From a virus (Duplodnaviria; Caudoviricetes), in the IMG/VR virus record IMGVR_UViG_3300043772_002998, positions 1-60,332 of that record: 60,332 bases of DNA. One strand, given 5' to 3'. The notes under the pieces are model-generated. The model ran no database searches. It worked only from the letters and a program-made list of their open reading frames with translations, and had not been told where the DNA came from. The translations under genes and the position numbers were made by a program. How positions within the stretch are numbered: position 1 is the stretch's first letter; the number at the start of each line of letters is the position of its first letter. This document shows, piece by piece, positions 27,373 through 59,826 of this stretch.

Positions 27373-28365
27373 CTAGACACCTAACCCCAGTTGCTCCACC
27401 ACTTCCGCCAGCTTCTCACCATCGACACCAGCGGCAGCCGCCATCCGCCGGGGCCGCTTGCTGCCGCCGATGCCGCGCTCTACCGAAAAGCCAAGCGGCG
27501 CCAGCTCTGCCTCTCCCCGCACCTGATGCCGACCGATGGCACCCTTGACGTGAACCGCGAATTGCCCGAGCGGTAGGCCCGGCACATGCCGCCGCTTGCC
27601 ATTCCAGCCGGCGACAATGGCATCCCGATCGCCGGGCTCCATCCGGTGCCATGCCCGCGTCGCAAGGTCATACAGGCCATTCAGCTCTGCGGCATCCTCG
27701 AACTCCTGATCTTCCAATACCTGGCCATTGCGCACCCGCGGTTCAGAGTCCAACCCAAGCACTTCATCCCAGTGCTTGAATTGCCGGCTGACGTGGAGCA
27801 TCTCGCGCACGTCCGCTTCCGTCAGAATCGCGCTACTGCTGCCAGCCCTTGCGCCAACCTCCTCCACGATCTCAGCCGCGCTCTTGCCGCTTTGCGCCAG
27901 CTTCCGCACCTTCGGCATGTACTCCCGCCAGCTGTGCGGGAACTTCACGGCATAGCCATAGTCCCGGATCCATTGCTTAATGGTGCCGACGATCTTCGGC
28001 ACCGCATGGGTTGAGAACTTATTGCCCCGGGATGGATCGAAGGTACGGGCAGCTTTGATCAGGCCCCACACGGCGGCATCGTGTAGGTCTTCCGCGGAAA
28101 ACTTGGTCTTGAAGCCCATCTGACGGGCAAATGACCGCGCCAGGTCCAGGTTGTTGACGATCAGTGCGTCGGACTCCGGCGTGCGTTTCGGCAGCCCATA
28201 GGCGTCTGTGGCGTCCGCATCCTCGGGGCTGGCATCATCCGCCAACTCAACCGGCGGCAGGTCTTCCGCGCCCTCCTGGGCCTCCACCGGGGGCGCCTCC
28301 ACCGCAGCCAATGCCGCCCGCCCGCTACGGCGCCCCCTGCCCCTCGGCGTTGCCGTTGCCGTCAC
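27373..28365 (-). CDS. Phage RNA polymerase sigma factor (sigma70 family, SigF/SigB-like)
   Basis: Region 2: LI..NL.LAR.FA...EDL......GLIKAA..FDPSRG.KFSTHA.P.I.G.IK..IRD....VK.P. Confidence 0.88.
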   Translation of the reverse strand: MTATATPRGRGRRSGRAALAAVEAPPVEAQEGAEDLPPVELADDASPEDADATDAYGLPKRTPESDALIVNNLDLARSFARQMGFKTKFSAEDLHDAAVWGLIKAARTFDPSRGNKFSTHAVPKIVGTIKQWIRDYGYAVKFPHSWREYMPKVRKLAQSGKSAAEIVEEVGARAGSSSAILTEADVREMLHVSRQFKHWDEVLGLDSEPRVRNGQVLEDQEFEDAAELNGLYDLATRAWHRMEPGDRDAIVAGWNGKRRHVPGLPLGQFAVHVKGAIGRHQVRGEAELAPLGFSVERGIGGSKRPRRMAAAAGVDGEKLAEVVEQLGLGV

Positions 28366-49354: not shown

Positions 49355-50948
49355 TCACTGGACCCGCCGGGAATCCCACCCGGAACCATCGGATGGTAGC
49401 ACCGGCGCCACGGCTTCCAACCTGACTACTTCCGAGCTGTCTCCTTGGCTCTTCGGCCACGTTGCAAGGAAGGCAACCAGCTGCCCGGCATTGAGTTGAC
49501 TGAGCTGTTCAATGATCTCGGGTCTTTCCGCTTGGAGCCGAATAAACCTCGGTTCTTCTAGTTGGTTTCGAGTCAATACCGCAAAGTATTCTCCGCCTCC
49601 CTTGTAAAGGAATCCGGCACCAGACCAAAAAGAAGGAACCTCGGCGATTTCATTTAGCGGGATTGAGGCTCTACCGTTAATCAAGTCCGGTGATAGCAGC
49701 TTCATGGTCATAAGCTCTTTGTACGGGGGCAGTGATGCCGGCGGTGGGATTTGCATGGGAGAGGGTTGCAGTGGGGAATGGCAGGGTCAGTCGTCGGAAC
49801 TGATGCGCTGCGTATTTATCAAGAGAAGCCCAACGCCTGAAAGTGTAAGGTTTCTAACAAGTTTGTCGATTTCAGGGGAAGAATCAAAAGTTGCAAAGAC
49901 GGCGGTTGTGACAAGGAGACAGCCCATGGAATAAGTCAAGAAGCTGTTAAGGGTTTTCATTATGATCAGGGGATAGGGTGGATGCCGCCGGGATGCGCTC
50001 CCGGCTGGCGGGGGTCAGCTATTGTTTTTGGTTAGCCTCTCCATGTCAGGCGATCGTCAAAAATTGCTTCCCAGTCGGGATTGGCGGGATCGTAGACCTC
50101 TTCCAGCAGGGGGCGGATCTCTTCTGTGGTGAGATTGATGGAGCCGCCTTCAACGGCCCAACGATGGAAACCGCCGCCGATTGCAGTACGAGCCAGCACA
50201 TCGTCAACGGTCGGGACAGCATCAGGTTCCGGCCCCCACATCTCTACTAGCCACGCCACCCGAACGGCATGATCCATCGCGTTGAACGCATCTTGCAAGA
50301 CGCGTTCGGTGGTGGTGGCGTTGGGGTCGATGTACTCTTGCCAGAGATCAAAGGAGCTGGCGATCTCGGAGTAGGAGGGCTTCATGGATTGTTCTCGGCG
50401 AGCCAGGAAAGGGCGTTGCGGGCGCGGGCATCTTCTTTGAGGGCGTCATGCGCGTCCACGTCAAAGAAGACTTCCACTACGTGATCTCGGCCTAAGGCGA
50501 CAGAGGCGTACAGGGAGCTGGATTGAGTTGCGGTGAATGCGGACGTGCGCAGCTCCACTGTGGACGGCCCTTCCCACTTTTGGGACAGCAGCCAGTCGCA
50601 GACCTCTGGGGGTGGTAGGTGTGGATCTCGTTTGTATTTGCGCGGCATGGTCGTGCTTGGGATTGGGGTGGGATGGGAGGCCGGGAGGGGACCCGGCCGG
50701 GGAGATGGTCAGTCTTCGTCGGCCGTGATGGACACGAGCAGAGGGTTGCACCAGATGCCGTGGTAGGGGCGGAAGTAGAACCCGGGCCATACTTCCAGCC
50801 CGTTTTCTGCGAGGTAGATGTGGAAATCAGCGGTATGGCCATCTGCGGTGGTGCCCGTAGCGAAGATTGCCGCATTGGGATCAGTGTCGGCGCCAGGGGT
50901 AAGGTCAAACTCCTTGGCGATGTCGGCGAGTTGGGAAAGAATAGACAT
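49355..50948 (-). CDS. Early operon of five small hypothetical genes (49355-49756, 49787-49960, 50032-50385, 50382-50648, 50709-50948)
   Basis: Downstream of the promoter copy at 51000-51018; two products are acidic and one has two hydrophobic segments. Confidence 0.55.
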
Positions 50949-50999
50949 TGCTGTGTCTGGGAATGGAGTGAGAAGCGAGGCCTCCCCCGCTGTCCTTTC

Positions 51000-51018
51000 A
51001 TCATAGGTCATTCGTCAC
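51000..51018 (-). promoter_or_regulatory. Repeated early promoter motif, copy 3
   Basis: GTGACGAATGACCTATGAT, then CAGCGGGGGAGGCC shared with copy 2. Confidence 0.65.
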
Positions 51019-51114
51019 ACCCCCGGAGGGGGTCGCGTAACACGCTGTCACAATCCCCCAGGGCGCCCCGGACTGCCGCTGCCCTAGCCTGTTCCCGTCG
51101 CCAACACTTCCCCA

Positions 51115-51321
51115 ATGCCCGAAAACATGAACATCGGTAACAGCATCAATGATACGAACGATGACGGTTTTCCTATGGTATGGTTCCCACCGCGTCCCGT
51201 CTTGGATGCCTTAGGAATCGCCGCTGAATACCAGCCGGCGTGTGGAACCGGCAGCTTACTCACCCATGCGGCTGGTTTCATCCTGTCCAACCCACCATTC
51301 GCCCCAGATCGTCGCCCATGA
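51115..51321 (+). pseudogene. Collapsed N6-adenine methyltransferase remnant (68 aa)
   Basis: PACGTGSLL (motif I) and ILSNPPF (motif IV) separated by only about 6 residues. Confidence 0.6.
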
Positions 51322-52589
51322 CCGCCACCCCAGCCCCGGAGGGCTTCAAGTTCAGTAAGGGGCATGACCCCACCAGTCTCAACGCCGCCTTGGCAATCAA
51401 GGATCGGAACCAGCGGCAAGCGGCCGTCAACAAGCTCACCCTAAAGGGTGGTCGCAAGCTGGTGTCGCCGCAGGCTGGCGTCATGGTAACCGGCGACTCG
51501 CCGGTGCCGGGCAGCCCGGAAAACATGAGCCCCCGGACGGCAGCTGAGCTTGCGGAGCTGGGCTTGCGGTTCCTGCTCGCCGACGTGCCCCTCTCTGAGC
51601 TGGCAAACCATCCAATCGCCATCCGTGGCGCCCAGATGCTCAAGGAGTTCGGCATCCCCCGGATGCTCTACGGCGAGGGCCCAGACGGCCTGTTCCGCAT
51701 GAATGCTGAGCGGGTGGGCGCCGATCGCGTGGGGCGCATCTCGGGGGCCTGGATCCCAACCGGATGGGGTGAACCGTTCTCGTTCCACGCCTACCGCCGA
51801 CTGGGGGCGTACGGGACCACGGAAGCCGAGTGGAAGGCCCTGCAGGACGGCAACATCCCGCGGCGGCAGGAAATGTCGCCCTGCACCATGCCGATTACTA
51901 CGGGCCGGGATATTGCCAGCCTCGCGCACCAAGACCCCCCGATCTCGATTGGGGATTGCGTCACGCGGATCCTGTTGGCGCACAATGCCAAGTTCTCCAC
52001 CCGTGCGCCGCTGACGCCAAACGAACAGGCGTTTGTGTCGCCCGGTGGGGTTTGGGAAATGCAATGCGCCAACGGCATTGCAGCGCTGCCCGCAGGCCAG
52101 ATCGGCTGGCGCCTCAAGGCTCGGGACTATCGCCGCGCCCGGCCGGAGGAACTGTGGCCGATGGCGGTCCGCGGCGAGCTGCACGAGTCATTCCTGCGGC
52201 TTGCCGGCTGGCTGGTGGACCTCGTGGGCCCCTACCTGCCCCTCGGCTATGCGGAGGGCTGCCCGCTCCATTCGGATGACCCCTCGGGCCATGCCATTTC
52301 CGCTGGCGTGTGGATCACCCTGTGCAAAGCCTGGTTCGCCGATGGTCCGGTGCCGTCGCTGAGCATCCAGAACCTGCACGCAGAAATTGATCTGATGGGC
52401 TGGCATCAGGCCGATGGTCGAGCATGGGCACGAATCCACACCCGCCGGAGCCTTACCGCTGGACTGCGGATCGGTGAGCAGCATGCCTTGGCATACCTGC
52501 GGCAGCAGAATGCCACGAGCCCGCAACCGCTGGGCGCGACCTCGTTTATCGGGGTGGATGGCAAGCTCATTGAACTGGAAGGAACCTGA
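51318..52589 (+). CDS. Vanadium-dependent haloperoxidase homologue (bromoperoxidase type, PAP2 fold)
   Basis: AAELAEL....L.DVP, TGRDIASLAHQD, W..K.......RPE, YL...Y.EG.P.H...PSGHA, GR....IH, GLRIGEQ.A, F..DG..I. Confidence 0.85.
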   Translation: MTATPAPEGFKFSKGHDPTSLNAALAIKDRNQRQAAVNKLTLKGGRKLVSPQAGVMVTGDSPVPGSPENMSPRTAAELAELGLRFLLADVPLSELANHPIAIRGAQMLKEFGIPRMLYGEGPDGLFRMNAERVGADRVGRISGAWIPTGWGEPFSFHAYRRLGAYGTTEAEWKALQDGNIPRRQEMSPCTMPITTGRDIASLAHQDPPISIGDCVTRILLAHNAKFSTRAPLTPNEQAFVSPGGVWEMQCANGIAALPAGQIGWRLKARDYRRARPEELWPMAVRGELHESFLRLAGWLVDLVGPYLPLGYAEGCPLHSDDPSGHAISAGVWITLCKAWFADGPVPSLSIQNLHAEIDLMGWHQADGRAWARIHTRRSLTAGLRIGEQHALAYLRQQNATSPQPLGATSFIGVDGKLIELEGT

Positions 52590-52597
52590 ACCGGGAC

Positions 52598-52620
52598 CGG
52601 GGGGCTGCGGCCCCCCTTTC
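52598..52620 (+). terminator. Terminator-like hairpin after the haloperoxidase gene
   Basis: GGGGGGC-TGCG-GCCCCCC-TTT. Confidence 0.6.
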
Positions 52621-52626
52621 CTGCGG

Positions 52627-52962
52627 TCAGTTGCTCATGCCGAGCTTCTGCATGACGCGTGCATTGAACGCCTCAAGGCTATTCAGCCGGGCATCCTGCT
52701 CCTTGTTGATCCTGTTGGTGTCTATGTGCTGCTGACACAGGACCTCAACTTTTTCGGTGAGCTTCGTGGTTTCCTTGGTGGATTCCGCGATCTTTTCCGC
52801 CAGCTTGGCGTTCTGATCCGCTAGCTTGCTGGATCCGGTCTGGTGGGTTTGCACCAGGATCGACAGCACGAGGCCAGCAAGGCCCACCACGGCCGGCGCC
52901 CACGTCTTCCAGGGGCTCTCCGGTGCGGCGTGAACGGTGGTGATGTTGCTGGTTTCGGGCAT
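52627..52962 (-). CDS. TM plus coiled-coil protein (holin/XhlA-like) with late motif
   Basis: TM AVVGLAGLVLSILV; QDARLNSLE; GGAAACCTA at 53005-53013. Confidence 0.6.
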   Translation of the reverse strand: MPETSNITTVHAAPESPWKTWAPAVVGLAGLVLSILVQTHQTGSSKLADQNAKLAEKIAESTKETTKLTEKVEVLCQQHIDTNRINKEQDARLNSLEAFNARVMQKLGMSN

Positions 52963-53447: not shown

Positions 53448-53936
53448 ATGGAACGACTCACGGGAAAAGCCCTGCTGGCGCATTACAAGGCAGGGGTTGA
53501 AGCCTGCAAGCTGAAGGGCCACATCATTGCGGAAGCCGGGTACGTCAAGACCTTGCCGGACGGTAAGGAACGGATTGAGTATGCGAAGTTCAATGCCGCC
53601 CTGCTGGCCAGTAAGGGGCTGTCAATTGGCCGGAAGCCGGCAGGTCGCCGCGGCCGGGATCTGAGCTACCGGGCAACCGTGCTCAAGCCGGGCCATGCCG
53701 TGATCGGCCGCGGGTATCTGCGGCAGATCGGCGCTGAACCTGACAGCGTGTTGGCCATTGAGGTGCGCGGGCACAGGCTGATCATCCAGGTGGCTGACCC
53801 GGTGGACAACACGGCGCCCACGCCCTGCGAAACCGGTAACTGCCCGATGCCGGCCCCTGCCGCTGCCCCCGCGCCTGCGGTGGCTCCTGAAACCGCCGCC
53901 TGCGGTATCGCCGCGCCTGTCGCTACGGTCGCCTGA
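53448..53936 (+). CDS. Cyanobacterial-type AbrB transcriptional regulator
   Basis: LTGKALL, AGYV, F..ALL..KG, RGR.LSYR..V...G...IG..Y...IG..P.....I. Confidence 0.85.
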   Translation: MERLTGKALLAHYKAGVEACKLKGHIIAEAGYVKTLPDGKERIEYAKFNAALLASKGLSIGRKPAGRRGRDLSYRATVLKPGHAVIGRGYLRQIGAEPDSVLAIEVRGHRLIIQVADPVDNTAPTPCETGNCPMPAPAAAPAPAVAPETAACGIAAPVATVA

Positions 53937-55007: not shown

Positions 55008-55157
55008 CTGCCCGCCGCCCAGCCAGTAGCCAGGTTGCAAACCGTTACGGGATCCCCCTCGCCAACCCCCGCCCGCTGGCAGCCCGGCAGGCTTTGAGCT
55101 AATGTATTGACAAGCGCATCTGACGCGCCATCTTTTGTCCCCAATCGCAAAACACCT

Positions 55158-56270
55158 ATGACCGTTTCAAGGTATCGCGGCGGCAATGCTGCGCCTGCAC
55201 GTACTGGCATCGCCCCGCCTCCTGGTGCGCCTGACGCCAAAGAAGATACGTCAATCGAAGCTCTATTCAAAAAGCACGCCCCAGAGATCGCGCTGGCGTT
55301 GCCGAAGCACGTCACGGTAGAGCGCCTGATGCGGATTGTCCTTTCGGAAGTGCGGAAGAATCCGCGGCTTGGGCAATGCACCCCGGCGTCGCTGCTGGTG
55401 TCGGCATTCAACTGCGCCGCGTTGGGACTGGAACCCGGCGGCATCCTCGGGCACGCCTATCTGATTCCCTACTGGAACGGCCGTGAAAAGCGGAATGAAT
55501 GCCAAGTCCAGATCGGTTACCGCGGCATGCTGGATCTTGCCCGCCGGTCCGGGCAGATTCAGTCAATCTCAGCTCATGTCGTCTACTCAAACGATGAGTT
55601 TGAGTATTTCTATGGCCTGAATGAAGACTTGATCCACCGCCCGGGGAAGGGTCAGCGTGGCGAGGTGGTCGCTGCCTATGCGGTGGCAAAGCTGAAGGAT
55701 GGTGGCAGTCAGTTTGAGGTGATGACCATTGATGATTTACTTGATGTTCGGGACAGCTCGCAGGGCTACCGGCAGGCAGTGGAAAAGGGCTGGGATAACC
55801 CGTGGATCAGCAACTTCGATGAGATGTGCCGAAAAAGCCCCGTCCGGCGTCTGTTCAAGTATCTGCCCGTTTCGATTGAAATGATGAAGGCCGCCAGCCT
55901 GGATGAATACGGCGAGCGTGGTCAGCATCAGGAATCGGAGCTGGATAGCATCCTCGGCCGACTGGCACCGGAAGCGCCGCCGGCAATGCCGACCCTGCGC
56001 GGTGCGCCTGAGCCCGCGGGTGAGCCCGAAGCTGTTCAGGCTGTCACGGTGGCCGCAGTCCCGCAGGCTGCCCCCGAGCCCATCCAGGCAGCCCCTACGG
56101 CAGCCCCTGCAGCCGCACCAGAGGCCGAACCGCAACGCCGCCAGCGCGCGCCCCGCCCGGTGCCGGTCGCCCAAGCAGAGGCCCCCGCGACAGCACCTGC
56201 CGAGGCCCCGAAACCGCCCGCCGATGAACCGCCCGCTGGTGAGATGGTGGAGCAAGAGCAGTTCCTGTGA
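55158..56270 (+). CDS. recT: RecT single-strand annealing recombinase
   Basis: ALPKH.T.ER..RI, LGLEP...LGHAYLIPY, QIGYRGM.DLARRSGQI, AYAVA.LKDGG.QF, PW...FDEM..K...RRLFKYLP.SIE. Confidence 0.93.
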   Translation: MTVSRYRGGNAAPARTGIAPPPGAPDAKEDTSIEALFKKHAPEIALALPKHVTVERLMRIVLSEVRKNPRLGQCTPASLLVSAFNCAALGLEPGGILGHAYLIPYWNGREKRNECQVQIGYRGMLDLARRSGQIQSISAHVVYSNDEFEYFYGLNEDLIHRPGKGQRGEVVAAYAVAKLKDGGSQFEVMTIDDLLDVRDSSQGYRQAVEKGWDNPWISNFDEMCRKSPVRRLFKYLPVSIEMMKAASLDEYGERGQHQESELDSILGRLAPEAPPAMPTLRGAPEPAGEPEAVQAVTVAAVPQAAPEPIQAAPTAAPAAAPEAEPQRRQRAPRPVPVAQAEAPATAPAEAPKPPADEPPAGEMVEQEQFL

Positions 56271-57587: not shown

Positions 57588-58613
57588 ATGACAACCGCCA
57601 TCACAGCGCCGATCATCACCGGCCCTGCCGTCTACGCCAACCTGCCCCGCGAGTCCTATGACGCCATGCGGGGGTGGAATGCAAGCCTGCTAAAAAAGGT
57701 TCTTGAAAAGACCTTGGGCCATGCCTGGTTTGAGTTTATCCGTCCCGACCGCGAACCCCAGGCCGACAAGGAGGAGTTCATCAAGGGCAACCAGCTGCAC
57801 ACCTTGACCCTGGAGCCGGAGATGTATGACAGCCGCTACGTGGTCGCGCCTGAATCGTTGCCTAGCCGACCGACGAAAAAGCAGCTTGAGGAACCCACGG
57901 CAAAGCCTGGCACCAAGACCCACGAAAGCTGGCTGGATGCCAAGGCCCGGGAGGCGGCATGGGTCGAGTGGGAGCGGACTTTGCCCGCCGATGTCAAGGT
58001 GGTTCCCGCCAGCTGGCACGATGAAGCCAGCGCATGGAACGCCGCCATCGCCCGCCATCGCCTCCTGGGCCCGCGGTTCACGCCTGAGTTTCGGCACCTG
58101 AACGAGCTGACGCTGACATACCTGGACCCGATCACGAAAGCACCCTGCAAGGCCCGACTAGACGCCCTGAGGATCTTTGATGACCACATCTGGATCGGCG
58201 ACCTCAAGACCGCCATGGCCGCCGGCAGCGTCTTCGAGCGGTCTGCCGCAAACCTCTGGTATCCCGTCGCCGCCACCTTCTACACCGATGCGGTGTTCCA
58301 CTGCCGCCCCCAACTGGAAAGCTACCTAGGGATGCCTGATGGCGCCCTGATCGGCCGTGAAGTCCAGTTTGAGTGGATCGCTATTGAGAAGACCGCGCCG
58401 CACTTCATTGAGCGGTTGCTGTTGGATAAAGAAGCGCTTGAAACCAGCCGGAAGCTTATCCGCCGGGCATTGGATGCTGTGGTCGCCGCTGATGCCGCAA
58501 ATTGGTGGCCTGCCTATTCCGATGAAGCCCGTCCGCTCCAGCTGCCCGGCTACTGGTTCCAGAATGCCGAACGGATCGCCGATCGGCTTGAATCCCTCCT
58601 TGTCGCCGGCTGA
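57588..58613 (+). CDS. RecE/exonuclease VIII-like PD-(D/E)XK nuclease (DUF3799-type)
   Basis: S.LK, G..LH...LEP, CKARLD, DLKT, Y...A.FY, F..IA.EK..P. Confidence 0.85.
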   Translation: MTTAITAPIITGPAVYANLPRESYDAMRGWNASLLKKVLEKTLGHAWFEFIRPDREPQADKEEFIKGNQLHTLTLEPEMYDSRYVVAPESLPSRPTKKQLEEPTAKPGTKTHESWLDAKAREAAWVEWERTLPADVKVVPASWHDEASAWNAAIARHRLLGPRFTPEFRHLNELTLTYLDPITKAPCKARLDALRIFDDHIWIGDLKTAMAAGSVFERSAANLWYPVAATFYTDAVFHCRPQLESYLGMPDGALIGREVQFEWIAIEKTAPHFIERLLLDKEALETSRKLIRRALDAVVAADAANWWPAYSDEARPLQLPGYWFQNAERIADRLESLLVAG

Positions 58614-59100: not shown

Positions 59101-59826
59101 CTACTGGGGCCGCACATCCAGCGCCCACCCGGTGGCGGGGCCGTCAGCTTCCCAGCGGCGGCCCCAGTTTTTCCGGCTGTAGTGGATGCCGGCGCCGTTG
59201 CTGTGGTTGACGTAGCCGCCGCCGATCAGATCGGCTTCGCCGTTGGGGTCGTTGTGGATCCAGTCGGTGGGGGTGCAGCCGATCACCACGGTCCAATGGC
59301 CGCCGATCTTCTTGATACTCGTGATGGGCCCCTGGTGGAACCAGCCGACGGGCACGGGCCGGCCCGCGGCCAGGGCGCCCTCAAGGAATGCCGGGGTGCA
59401 GTTCGTCACCAGCCTGGCGGAGAGGCCCAGATGGCGCAGGGTGGCAATCTGCGCGTTGGCGTCGGTGGTATCGCCGAACTTGGCGCGGATCTTGTTGTAG
59501 GCATCGTCTGAGCCGATCTTCCCGTAGAACGCCGCGACCATGGCGCAGCTGCTGCTGAAGCACTCGCGATAGCCGGTGCCGCTGGCGTTGTCGTTCTGGC
59601 TGAAGTAGGGCACCCGCAGGACCGTGGGTGTCGGCTGCTTGCCGCCCGTGCTCCAGGTGGCGAACCACGACTCAGAGCGGCGCATCACATCGACGTAGGG
59701 CCTGCCCTTCATCAGTTCCGCCTCAAGCTCCACGATGGCGGCATCCTGCCGGGCGGCGGCCTCGGTGCCTGCGGCGGCCTTGTATCGCCAGAGCTGCTGG
59801 AAGGTGATCGGTGCTGGATTCGTCAT
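59101..59826 (-). CDS. C39-like cysteine peptidase, probable endolysin
   Basis: L.VPYFSQ.DN...RECFSSSCAM, GHW.VVIG, HNDP.G (Cys-His-Asp triad). Confidence 0.82.
   Translation of the reverse strand: MTNPAPITFQQLWRYKAAAGTEAAARQDAAIVELEAELMKGRPYVDVMRRSESWFATWSTGGKQPTPTVLRVPYFSQNDNASGTGYRECFSSSCAMVAAFYGKIGSDDAYNKIRAKFGDTTDANAQIATLRHLGLSARLVTNCTPAFLEGALAAGRPVPVGWFHQGPITSIKKIGGHWTVVIGCTPTDWIHNDPNGEADLIGGGYVNHSNGAGIHYSRKNWGRRWEADGPATGWALDVRPQ

Follow-up and report, generated by a model that had tools for sequence, protein, structure and literature searches.

Bromoform and other volatile halocarbons of marine biological origin are attributed in large part to vanadium-dependent bromoperoxidases (VBPOs), which usually release a diffusible hypohalous acid. 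To our knowledge, these members of the vanadium-dependent haloperoxidase (VHPO) family have so far been known from algae, fungi, bacteria, and cyanobacteria. The native VBPO of Synechococcus CC9311 has been characterized (available part of PMC10427571). VirX1 of cyanophage Syn10, an active flavin-dependent halogenase that halogenates bound substrates regiospecifically (PMC8407142, in the part available), is the only characterized virus-encoded halogenase that we found. Here, we studied a gene for a compact VBPO-like protein, P0001, encoded by a tailed-phage genome in IMG/VR (record IMGVR_UViG_3300043772_002998, Caudoviricetes). "The window" below means the whole stretch of that record that was analyzed, positions 1 to 60,332. 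The gene is as follows:

51318..52589, plus strand: gene for the compact VBPO-family protein P0001, 423 aa, recognized from its open reading frame (ORF), translation, family profile, AlphaFold2 model, and VIA superposition

The closest described enzymes are the VBPOs of the alga Ascophyllum nodosum (PDB entry 1QI9) and of Corallina (1QHB and 1UP8), which have the same two-bundle fold as that predicted for P0001, and in which the motifs K-x7-RP, H-x4-SGH, and R-x5-H are likewise accompanied by a Trp and a second His. P0001 differs from them in being encoded by a phage, in its length (423 aa vs. 556-598 aa, at 20%-24% identity), and in carrying S378 and T375 where 1QI9 has Asp and Tyr. The structural match spans residues 45-534 of the 1QI9 chain, leaving out its first ~44, and in the profile alignment two 1QI9 insertions, of ~13 and ~19 residues, are absent from the phage protein. 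An earlier sequence-only reading of this stretch, made by a model from the letters and their translations, had called the protein shorter than cellular VBPOs, and the solved VBPOs, at 556-666 aa, bear this out.

The VBPO of Acaryochloris marina (5LPC) belongs to the same subfamily (Z 31.2); enzymes such as this one and that of Synechococcus CC9311 can be encoded by the probable host group itself (PMC10427571, in the available part). The gene for P0001 was not copied recently from a host, the protein being ~23% identical to the cyanobacterial VBPO over the structural alignment; its nearest relatives outside the clade of similarly short proteins are of ~490-540 aa and are themselves found on viral contigs. 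VirX1, like P0001, comes from a cyanophage, although fold and cofactor are unrelated (flavin adenine dinucleotide in VirX1, vanadate in the VBPO family). Class A acid phosphatases (PhoN 2A96, Escherichia blattae 1D2T, and PhoC) have the catalytic bundle of helices and the Lys/Arg/Ser-Gly-His/Arg/His site in common with P0001, but they consist of one bundle of ~220 aa (available part of PMC4859513), and P0001 of two bundles in 423 aa. Finally, VHPO-like proteins of giant viruses that are named "PAP2 superfamily" (in Hokovirus, Yasminevirus, and Sylvanvirus) have the same fold, with template modeling (TM) scores of 0.81-0.83. These giant-virus and other long viral proteins have 485-637 aa, stand outside the short phage clade, and belong to eukaryotic viruses or larger viral genomes.

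Homology and predicted structure

The likeness of P0001 to VBPOs is detectable from a single sequence and becomes very strong with a family profile. A phmmer search of P0001 against the PDB returned 10 VBPO or haloperoxidase sequences with E values from 2.8e-8 to 2e-5, the best figure being quoted for 5LPC; one antibody also appeared, at E 0.93, and was dismissed as noise. The profile was built from an alignment, A1, of 36 sequences: the short forms number 38, query included, of which the fragments P0020 and P0031 were dropped, and the eight long matches P0039-P0046 were omitted. Against 1QI9, this profile gave E 3.4e-33, with profile positions 39-413 aligned to chain residues 100-531, and at E<=0.01 it matched ten VBPOs and the Zobellia iodoperoxidase 4CIT in the PDB, and nothing else.

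A model of P0001 made with AlphaFold2 from A1 has a mean predicted local distance difference test score (pLDDT) of 92.3 and a predicted TM score (pTM) of 0.92. Foldseek placed 1QI9 at the top rank for this model (E 1.8e-21, TM 0.86), and the VIA superposition on 1QI9 reached Z 37.7 with a root-mean-square deviation of 2.3 Å over 410 of 423 residues. The VIA comparisons fall into these groups:

All ten VBPO entries: Z 30.7-37.7, over 399-412 residues
Vanadium iodoperoxidase (VIPO), vanadium chloroperoxidases (VCPO), and NapH3: Z 12-17, over ~230 residues
Acid phosphatases: Z ~13, over ~185 residues

The resemblance thus extends along the entire chain, and the model therefore describes a whole, trimmed VBPO and not a one-bundle phosphatase to which a domain has been added, a distinction between phosphatases and haloperoxidases that is described in the available part of PMC4859513. 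As modeled, P0001 is a full-length but trimmed member of the VBPO structural subfamily, with both helical bundles present. The sequence-only reading had proposed a homolog of algal and cyanobacterial VBPOs that is more than a simple PAP2 phosphatase, and had named superposition on the Ascophyllum enzyme as a check; profile, Foldseek, and VIA results all agree with that proposal. The N-terminal blocks that it had singled out as VBPO-type (TAAELAELGLRFLLADVPL and TTGRDIASLAHQD) do align with the matching blocks of 5LPC and 1QI9.

Among 5.8 billion clusters, a word-indexed search turned up 45 proteins, of which 37 are short (clusters at 90% identity; 321-448 aa; 35%-96% identical to P0001) and 8 are long (P0039-P0046; 534-589 aa; 24%-27% identical). 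The source names of 10 short-form clusters were looked up, and these were "hypothetical protein" or nameless. Of the 37 short forms, 14 have precomputed matches to PF22778 (VCPO_2nd). In an exhaustive HMMER search of representatives at 50% identity, 456 proteins matched at E<=1e-3 and only 14 at E<=1e-30; below those 14, scores drop steeply to longer proteins of roughly 490-600 aa and ~30% identity, one of them labeled "vanadium-dependent haloperoxidase" of a Haloarchaeobius.

The ORF as listed runs from a GTG at 51240 to 52589 on the plus strand (449 aa), and an ATG at 51318 gives the 423-aa protein. We take 51318 as the likely start because the two closest relatives, P0002 and P0003, share the N terminus MTATPAPEG. 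The GC content at third codon positions (GC3) in this frame is 0.78. Two long ORFs on the opposite strand, 51441-52184 and 52188-52526, were rejected as shadows, since their apparent tblastn conservation always lay under the VHPO-like gene of other loci. P0001 has neither a signal peptide nor a hydrophobic segment (highest 19-residue Kyte-Doolittle mean 1.12), so that it is probably soluble and cytoplasmic, and scavenging of external phosphate, one of the roles that the sequence-only reading had offered, becomes unlikely.

The active site and a proposed function

The three vanadate-binding motifs are present where the sequence-only reading had placed them:

52107..52148, plus strand: motif 1, WRLKARDYRRARPE, W264 to E277, with W264-x2-K267-x7-R275-P276; ungapped alignment to W338, K341, R349, and P350 of 1QI9
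52263..52295, plus strand: motif 2, PLHSDDPSGHA, P316 to A326, with P316-x-H318-x4-S323-G324-H325; aligned with H411, S416, G417, and H418 of 1QI9
52416..52451, plus strand: motif 3, GRAWARIH, G367 to H374, with G367-R368-x5-H374 (52416-52439), followed by T375 and S378; aligned with R480, H486, Y487, and D490 of 1QI9

Residue numbers for 1QI9 were counted along the ungapped profile alignment, in which every residue that holds vanadate in 1QI9 is retained in P0001, namely K267, R275, S323, G324, H325, R368, and H374. We take the aligned residues to be those that hydrogen-bond vanadate, with H325 as the acid-base His and H374 as the ligand His, and the Trp before the Lys (W264) and the second His (H318) to be second-shell marks of bromoperoxidases. 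The K-x7-RP spacing is that of 1QI9. Eight residues (K267, R275, P276, H318, S323, H325, R368, and H374) are identical in 36/36 A1 sequences, W264 and G324 are found in 34/36, and the same ten positions are kept in 10/10 viral copies of the gene. The sole relatives with Gly for W264 are P0010 and P0011, both of which also have Trp for G324 (PSWH vs. PSGH), and the two changes could offset each other from opposite sides of the active site.

Behind the ligand His, the family varies in an orderly way. Positions 375 and 378 co-vary perfectly across the 36 A1 sequences: Tyr or Phe occurs with Asp in seven, and Thr, Ser, or Leu occurs with Ser or Ala in 29. The Asp four residues past the ligand His is invariant in 18/18 long-form relatives. 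The divergence that the sequence-only reading had remarked on at SDDPSGH and IHTRRS is borne out by A1, and with Ser in place of Asp behind the vanadate-binding His an altered chemistry is possible.

That P0001 is homologous to VBPOs and is encoded by a phage is, taken alone, a claim that we hold with near certainty. For its function, we consider it moderately probable, taking the statement as a whole and with haloperoxidase activity included, that P0001 works as a cytoplasmic vanadate-dependent haloperoxidase during lytic infection of a picocyanobacterium. P0001 would be made in the lytically infected cell from its own transcription unit; vanadate would be bound at H374 and would react with H2O2 to give peroxovanadate, H325 acting as acid and base; bromide or iodide would be oxidized to hypohalous acid; and this acid would then halogenate nearby organic molecules or use up a second H2O2. 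The roles listed in the sequence-only reading (H2O2 removal, halogenation, and phosphate scavenging) would look alike in sequence.

Distribution and evolution

Short-form relatives occur at ten loci in IMG/VR. Nine of these (L002-L010) share more phage genes with the window, so that the short form is carried by at least 10 phage genomes, the window included; the tenth (L011) is a giant-virus metagenome-assembled genome (MAG) whose protein, 25% identical, is placed by the tree outside the clade of short phage forms. Among five related records that were checked, CheckV rates three (48-60 kb) as complete, one of which has direct terminal repeats. The ORFs are intact in the nine phage loci and in the giant-virus locus (402-455 aa), hence, with the window, in 11/11 viral copies.

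In a FastTree phylogeny of 122 rows, 48 short forms and nine phage copies (besides that of the window) form one clade with a Shimodaira-Hasegawa-like support of 100, the only kind of support calculated, in a tree with no outgroup. The tree leaves out short rows of <380 aa, long rows of <470 aa, all of P0125-P0193, and L010, a duplicate of L009. Phage contigs are found in every deep branch of the short-form clade, and the long forms nearest to it are P0062, P0064, P0066, and P0073. The longest contig bearing any short form is 61,785 bp. Two peptide-pattern scans for the short form in contigs of cellular genomes gave 42 and 69 pattern matches, none of them confirmed, which is weak evidence of absence because the scans were based on few peptide patterns. 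Searching 50,697 deposited phage records by tblastn with P0001 and with the long form P0064 gave no match.

The ratio of nonsynonymous to synonymous substitution rates (dN/dS) is 0.17 for L002/L003 and 0.12 for L006/L007. The L009/L010 pair is identical and uninformative, and five distant pairs were not used (four have dS >1.5, and L004/L002 is saturated). Judged by these sequence comparisons, the short-form family is a phage-only clade under purifying selection.

Viruses seem to have acquired the VHPO family repeatedly. Long-form relatives, matched over ~440-530 aa, are present in 38 further IMG/VR loci (L012-L049), which include giant-virus MAGs, contigs of 100-600 kb, and one 74-kb record with a Terminase_6N gene. 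That gene was found in one of five long-form viral records examined, and the cyanophage-type endolysin was found in none of the five. A search for the capsid family of nucleocytoplasmic large DNA viruses matched neither the long-form records nor the controls and is hence uninformative. In the ESM Atlas, clusters of VBPO-like proteins have few labeled members, and those are mostly viral.

The phage genome and its probable host

The record is a 60-kb linear siphovirus genome, estimated by CheckV to be 92% complete and lacking terminal repeats. The gene had been read as phage-encoded, and the large terminase subunit (TerL), portal, and tape measure genes in the same record confirm this. The features of the window that bear on phage identity, lifestyle, and host are these:

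Minus strand: phage genes for TerL, a sigma-70-like protein, portal, minor head protein, and tape measure
27373-28365, minus strand: protein of 330 aa containing a sigma-70 region 2 domain, its gene placed between those for TerL and portal, as is that of a homolog in L006
36093-36602, minus strand: dCTP deaminase-like protein, recognized by Pfam DCD at E 8e-28, which shares 60% identity with an L003 gene
50032-50385, minus strand: 117-aa match to AcrF31 (anti-CRISPR F31; Pfam, 35.3 bits with a cut-off of 27, E 1.2e-8; PHROG 17406)
53448-53936: AbrB-like regulator, upstream of the RecET-type module
55107-56270, plus strand: RecT-like annealing protein of a RecET-type recombination module
57588-58613, plus strand: exonuclease VIII/PDDEXK protein of the RecET-type recombination module
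59101-59826, minus strand: C39-type endolysin (PHROG 10051, E 2.8e-69)

The best clue to the host is the endolysin, whose matches among deposited phages are all of cyanophage type (106/106; 93 Synechococcus phages and 13 cyanophages), with identity up to 55%. The best matches of TerL and portal among cultured phages are the cyanosiphoviruses S-CBS2, S-CRES1-3, and PSS2, at 32%-39% identity. Because endolysin, TerL, and portal all match cyanophages or cyanosiphoviruses, the host is likely a picocyanobacterium, probably Synechococcus. A megablast search with 24 kb of the window found only four short methylase matches, of ~76%, to Mycobacterium phages, and is uninformative on this point. An anti-CRISPR-like domain of type I-F is a surprise in what is probably a cyanophage, and it is the one hint pointing away from a cyanobacterial host, the AcrF31 family being, as we understand it, from phages of Proteobacteria.

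Searches of the record for tyrosine and serine recombinases, integrases, and resolvases came back empty, with positive controls that matched in 14 and 12 of 14 genomes, and no tRNA was detected in the window. Several DNA methyltransferase-like genes are present, one of them annotated, and together with the DCD-like gene they hint that phages of this group modify nucleotides or DNA.

Gene neighborhood

The surroundings of the VHPO-like gene are as follows:

51012..51317: 306-bp intergenic region and presumed promoter site, between a divergent gene (50709-51011, minus strand) and the VHPO-like gene
51115..51321, plus strand: 68-aa ORF whose stop overlaps the VHPO-like start (ATGA), a likely methyltransferase remnant by two collinear weak BLASTP matches
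52599..52619: candidate terminator hairpin, read from the sequence, with a 7-bp stem GGGGGGC/GCCCCCC and loop TGCG (52599-52616), then TTT, between convergent genes
52627..52962, minus strand: gene convergent with the VHPO-like one, for a 111-aa protein that has a hydrophobic helix at its N terminus, then a coiled coil, and a single conserved Cys

From this arrangement, we infer that the VHPO-like gene would form its own transcription unit, reaching from the divergent intergenic region to the hairpin that it shares with its convergent neighbor. The promoter in 51012..51317 is likewise inferred because a consensus scan gave no site there, and the hairpin was missed by the same kind of scan because its T run is short.

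The 68-aa ORF upstream is probably a deletion remnant of a DNA methyltransferase gene. In L009 and L010, a 619-aa methyltransferase gene lies directly upstream of the VHPO-like gene, and the small ORF matches motif I and the NPPF motif of that protein in BLASTP with E values of 0.009 and 0.011. It contains compressed methyltransferase motifs (CGTGS ... NPPF), and its GC3 is under the 0.66 cut-off of the ORF filter.

Directly downstream, the VHPO-like gene faces, tail to tail, a gene of the same build as that for the 111-aa protein, both in the window and in 9/9 phage loci (L002-L010), equivalents being L002 4261-4590, L004 11260-11565, L005 6093-6386, L006 11250-11471, L008 1695-1994, and L009 11267-11578. 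In L009 and L010, a lysis cassette of C39 endolysin and lysozyme has the small hydrophobic-helix gene as its last member, and since the L009 equivalent closes this cassette, the 111-aa neighbor may be spanin-like. The 111-aa protein matches no Pfam family, and its only PHROG match, to the tape-measure family phrog_13137, is marginal (E 0.00094, 18.8 bits). By BLAST, the small neighbors cluster into two groups only (the window with L002 and L003, and L004-L007), and an alignment of seven representatives and one further L009 protein has zero invariant columns; the common Trp, hydrophobic helix, and LCxQ...DKxQD pattern were judged by eye.

Alternative explanations

Several results weigh against a haloperoxidase in an infected picocyanobacterium. 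The vanadate-binding residues are all common to PAP2 acid phosphatases (available part of PMC4859513), and because they are common to both classes, first-shell residues alone cannot tell haloperoxidase from phosphatase. P0001 matches no Pfam or NCBIfam family at E<=1, and NCBIfam matches 0/36 of the A1 members. The Asp four residues past the ligand His (D490 in 1QI9) is replaced by S378, and the substitution is typical of the family, the position being Ser in 25/36, Asp in 7/36, and Ala in 4/36 (Ser or Ala in 29/36). Both gene pairs with usable dN/dS are of the Asp type, not of the Ser type found in the window. The sigma-70 consensus scan found no site upstream of the gene, with promoter and terminator counts near the gene as in shuffled sequences, and the host is assigned solely from similarity of phage genes.

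The main rival is a vanadate-free histidine phosphatase, in which H374 would be the nucleophile and H325 the proton donor, and whose substrate would be a cytoplasmic metabolite or nucleotide. We judge it unlikely, though several points favor it: such an enzyme would suit the phosphate economy of a cyanophage; all three motifs are of PAP2-superfamily type, and Pfam PAP2 matches 15/36 A1 members (best E 1.2e-10); some long relatives are named "membrane-associated phospholipid phosphatase" by the Joint Genome Institute (JGI); and apo-chloroperoxidase acts as a phosphatase, with an active site common to both families (PMC4859513, in the available part; title of PDB entry 3BB0). It is weakened by features that lie beyond the first shell. 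The entire chain follows VBPOs (Z 30.7-37.7), whereas acid phosphatases superpose over only ~185 residues. Class A acid phosphatases are periplasmic, keep HxxxD, and carry the motifs K-x6-RP and SR-x5-H-x3-D; P0001, in contrast, is not a single exported bundle of ~220 aa, has the K-x7-RP of 1QI9, and reads H374-x3-S378 in place of H-x3-D, the charge-relay Asp expected behind a nucleophilic His being Ser or Ala in most of the family. W264 (34/36) and H318 (36/36) are kept, and we know of no role for them in phosphatases. External phosphate would also be out of reach of a protein with no signal peptide.

A protein with the VBPO fold might instead have changed its chemistry, through the T375/S378 pair and the trimming, or have come to serve one specific substrate, perhaps tied to the conserved membrane neighbor or to an upstream methyltransferase. 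This we regard as improbable, in spite of the perfect co-variation of positions 375 and 378 across the 36 relatives, the conservation of the tail-to-tail neighbor in 10/10 phage genomes, and a precedent for non-halogenating chemistry on this fold in NapH3 (8CXL, by its title), a VHPO homolog that catalyzes a rearrangement. All first-shell residues, W264, and H318 are retained, as an ordinary haloperoxidase needs; conservation of the neighborhood may reflect only synteny within one phage lineage; and no candidate substrate genes lie near that for P0001. Far less credible is a decaying or functionless passenger gene, or a cellular contig misbinned as viral. The lack of any family model matching P0001, a linear record without terminal repeats, and the methyltransferase remnant just upstream could be read in that way, but intact ORFs in all 11 viral copies, dN/dS of 0.12-0.17, eight invariant catalytic residues, phage hallmark genes that fill the record, and related records that are complete by CheckV, one with direct terminal repeats, already contradict it.

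Novelty and meaning of a possible phage haloperoxidase

In the literature, we found no paper on a phage vanadium haloperoxidase, judging mostly by title or abstract; in PMC11312541, "phage" refers to integrases near bacterial VHPO genes. The sequence-only reading had stated that no characterized phage-encoded example was known, and this holds for the literature searched and for the 50,697 deposited phage genomes; the gene is not, however, the sole one of its kind, given that its clade comprises 37 clusters (90% identity) and occurs on at least 10 phage genomes, and that 38 more loci carry long forms. The family and its chemistry are thus already known, and what is new is a phage-only minimal clade with a variant second shell.

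We put forward tentatively, and with considerable doubt, that this is the first vanadium enzyme and haloperoxidase of a phage: lytic cyanosiphoviruses of one clade would use a minimal VBPO to convert H2O2 of the infected cell to hypobromous or hypoiodous acid, perhaps together with the small membrane protein that is always its tail-to-tail neighbor at the end of the lysis genes, so that infection of picocyanobacteria would directly yield reactive halogen and volatile halocarbons such as bromoform. If the haloperoxidase proposal is true, the H2O2 of infection would become reactive halogen, and P0001 would be the second viral halogenating enzyme after VirX1, with a different mechanism. For enzymologists, the short form would be the smallest natural VBPO scaffold, at ~420 aa vs. 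556-666 aa in solved VBPOs, and it offers a natural switch of Asp/Ser and Tyr/Thr behind the metal-binding His that is directly testable. A clade of such enzymes borne by phages would, if true, make viral infection a driver of halogen chemistry.

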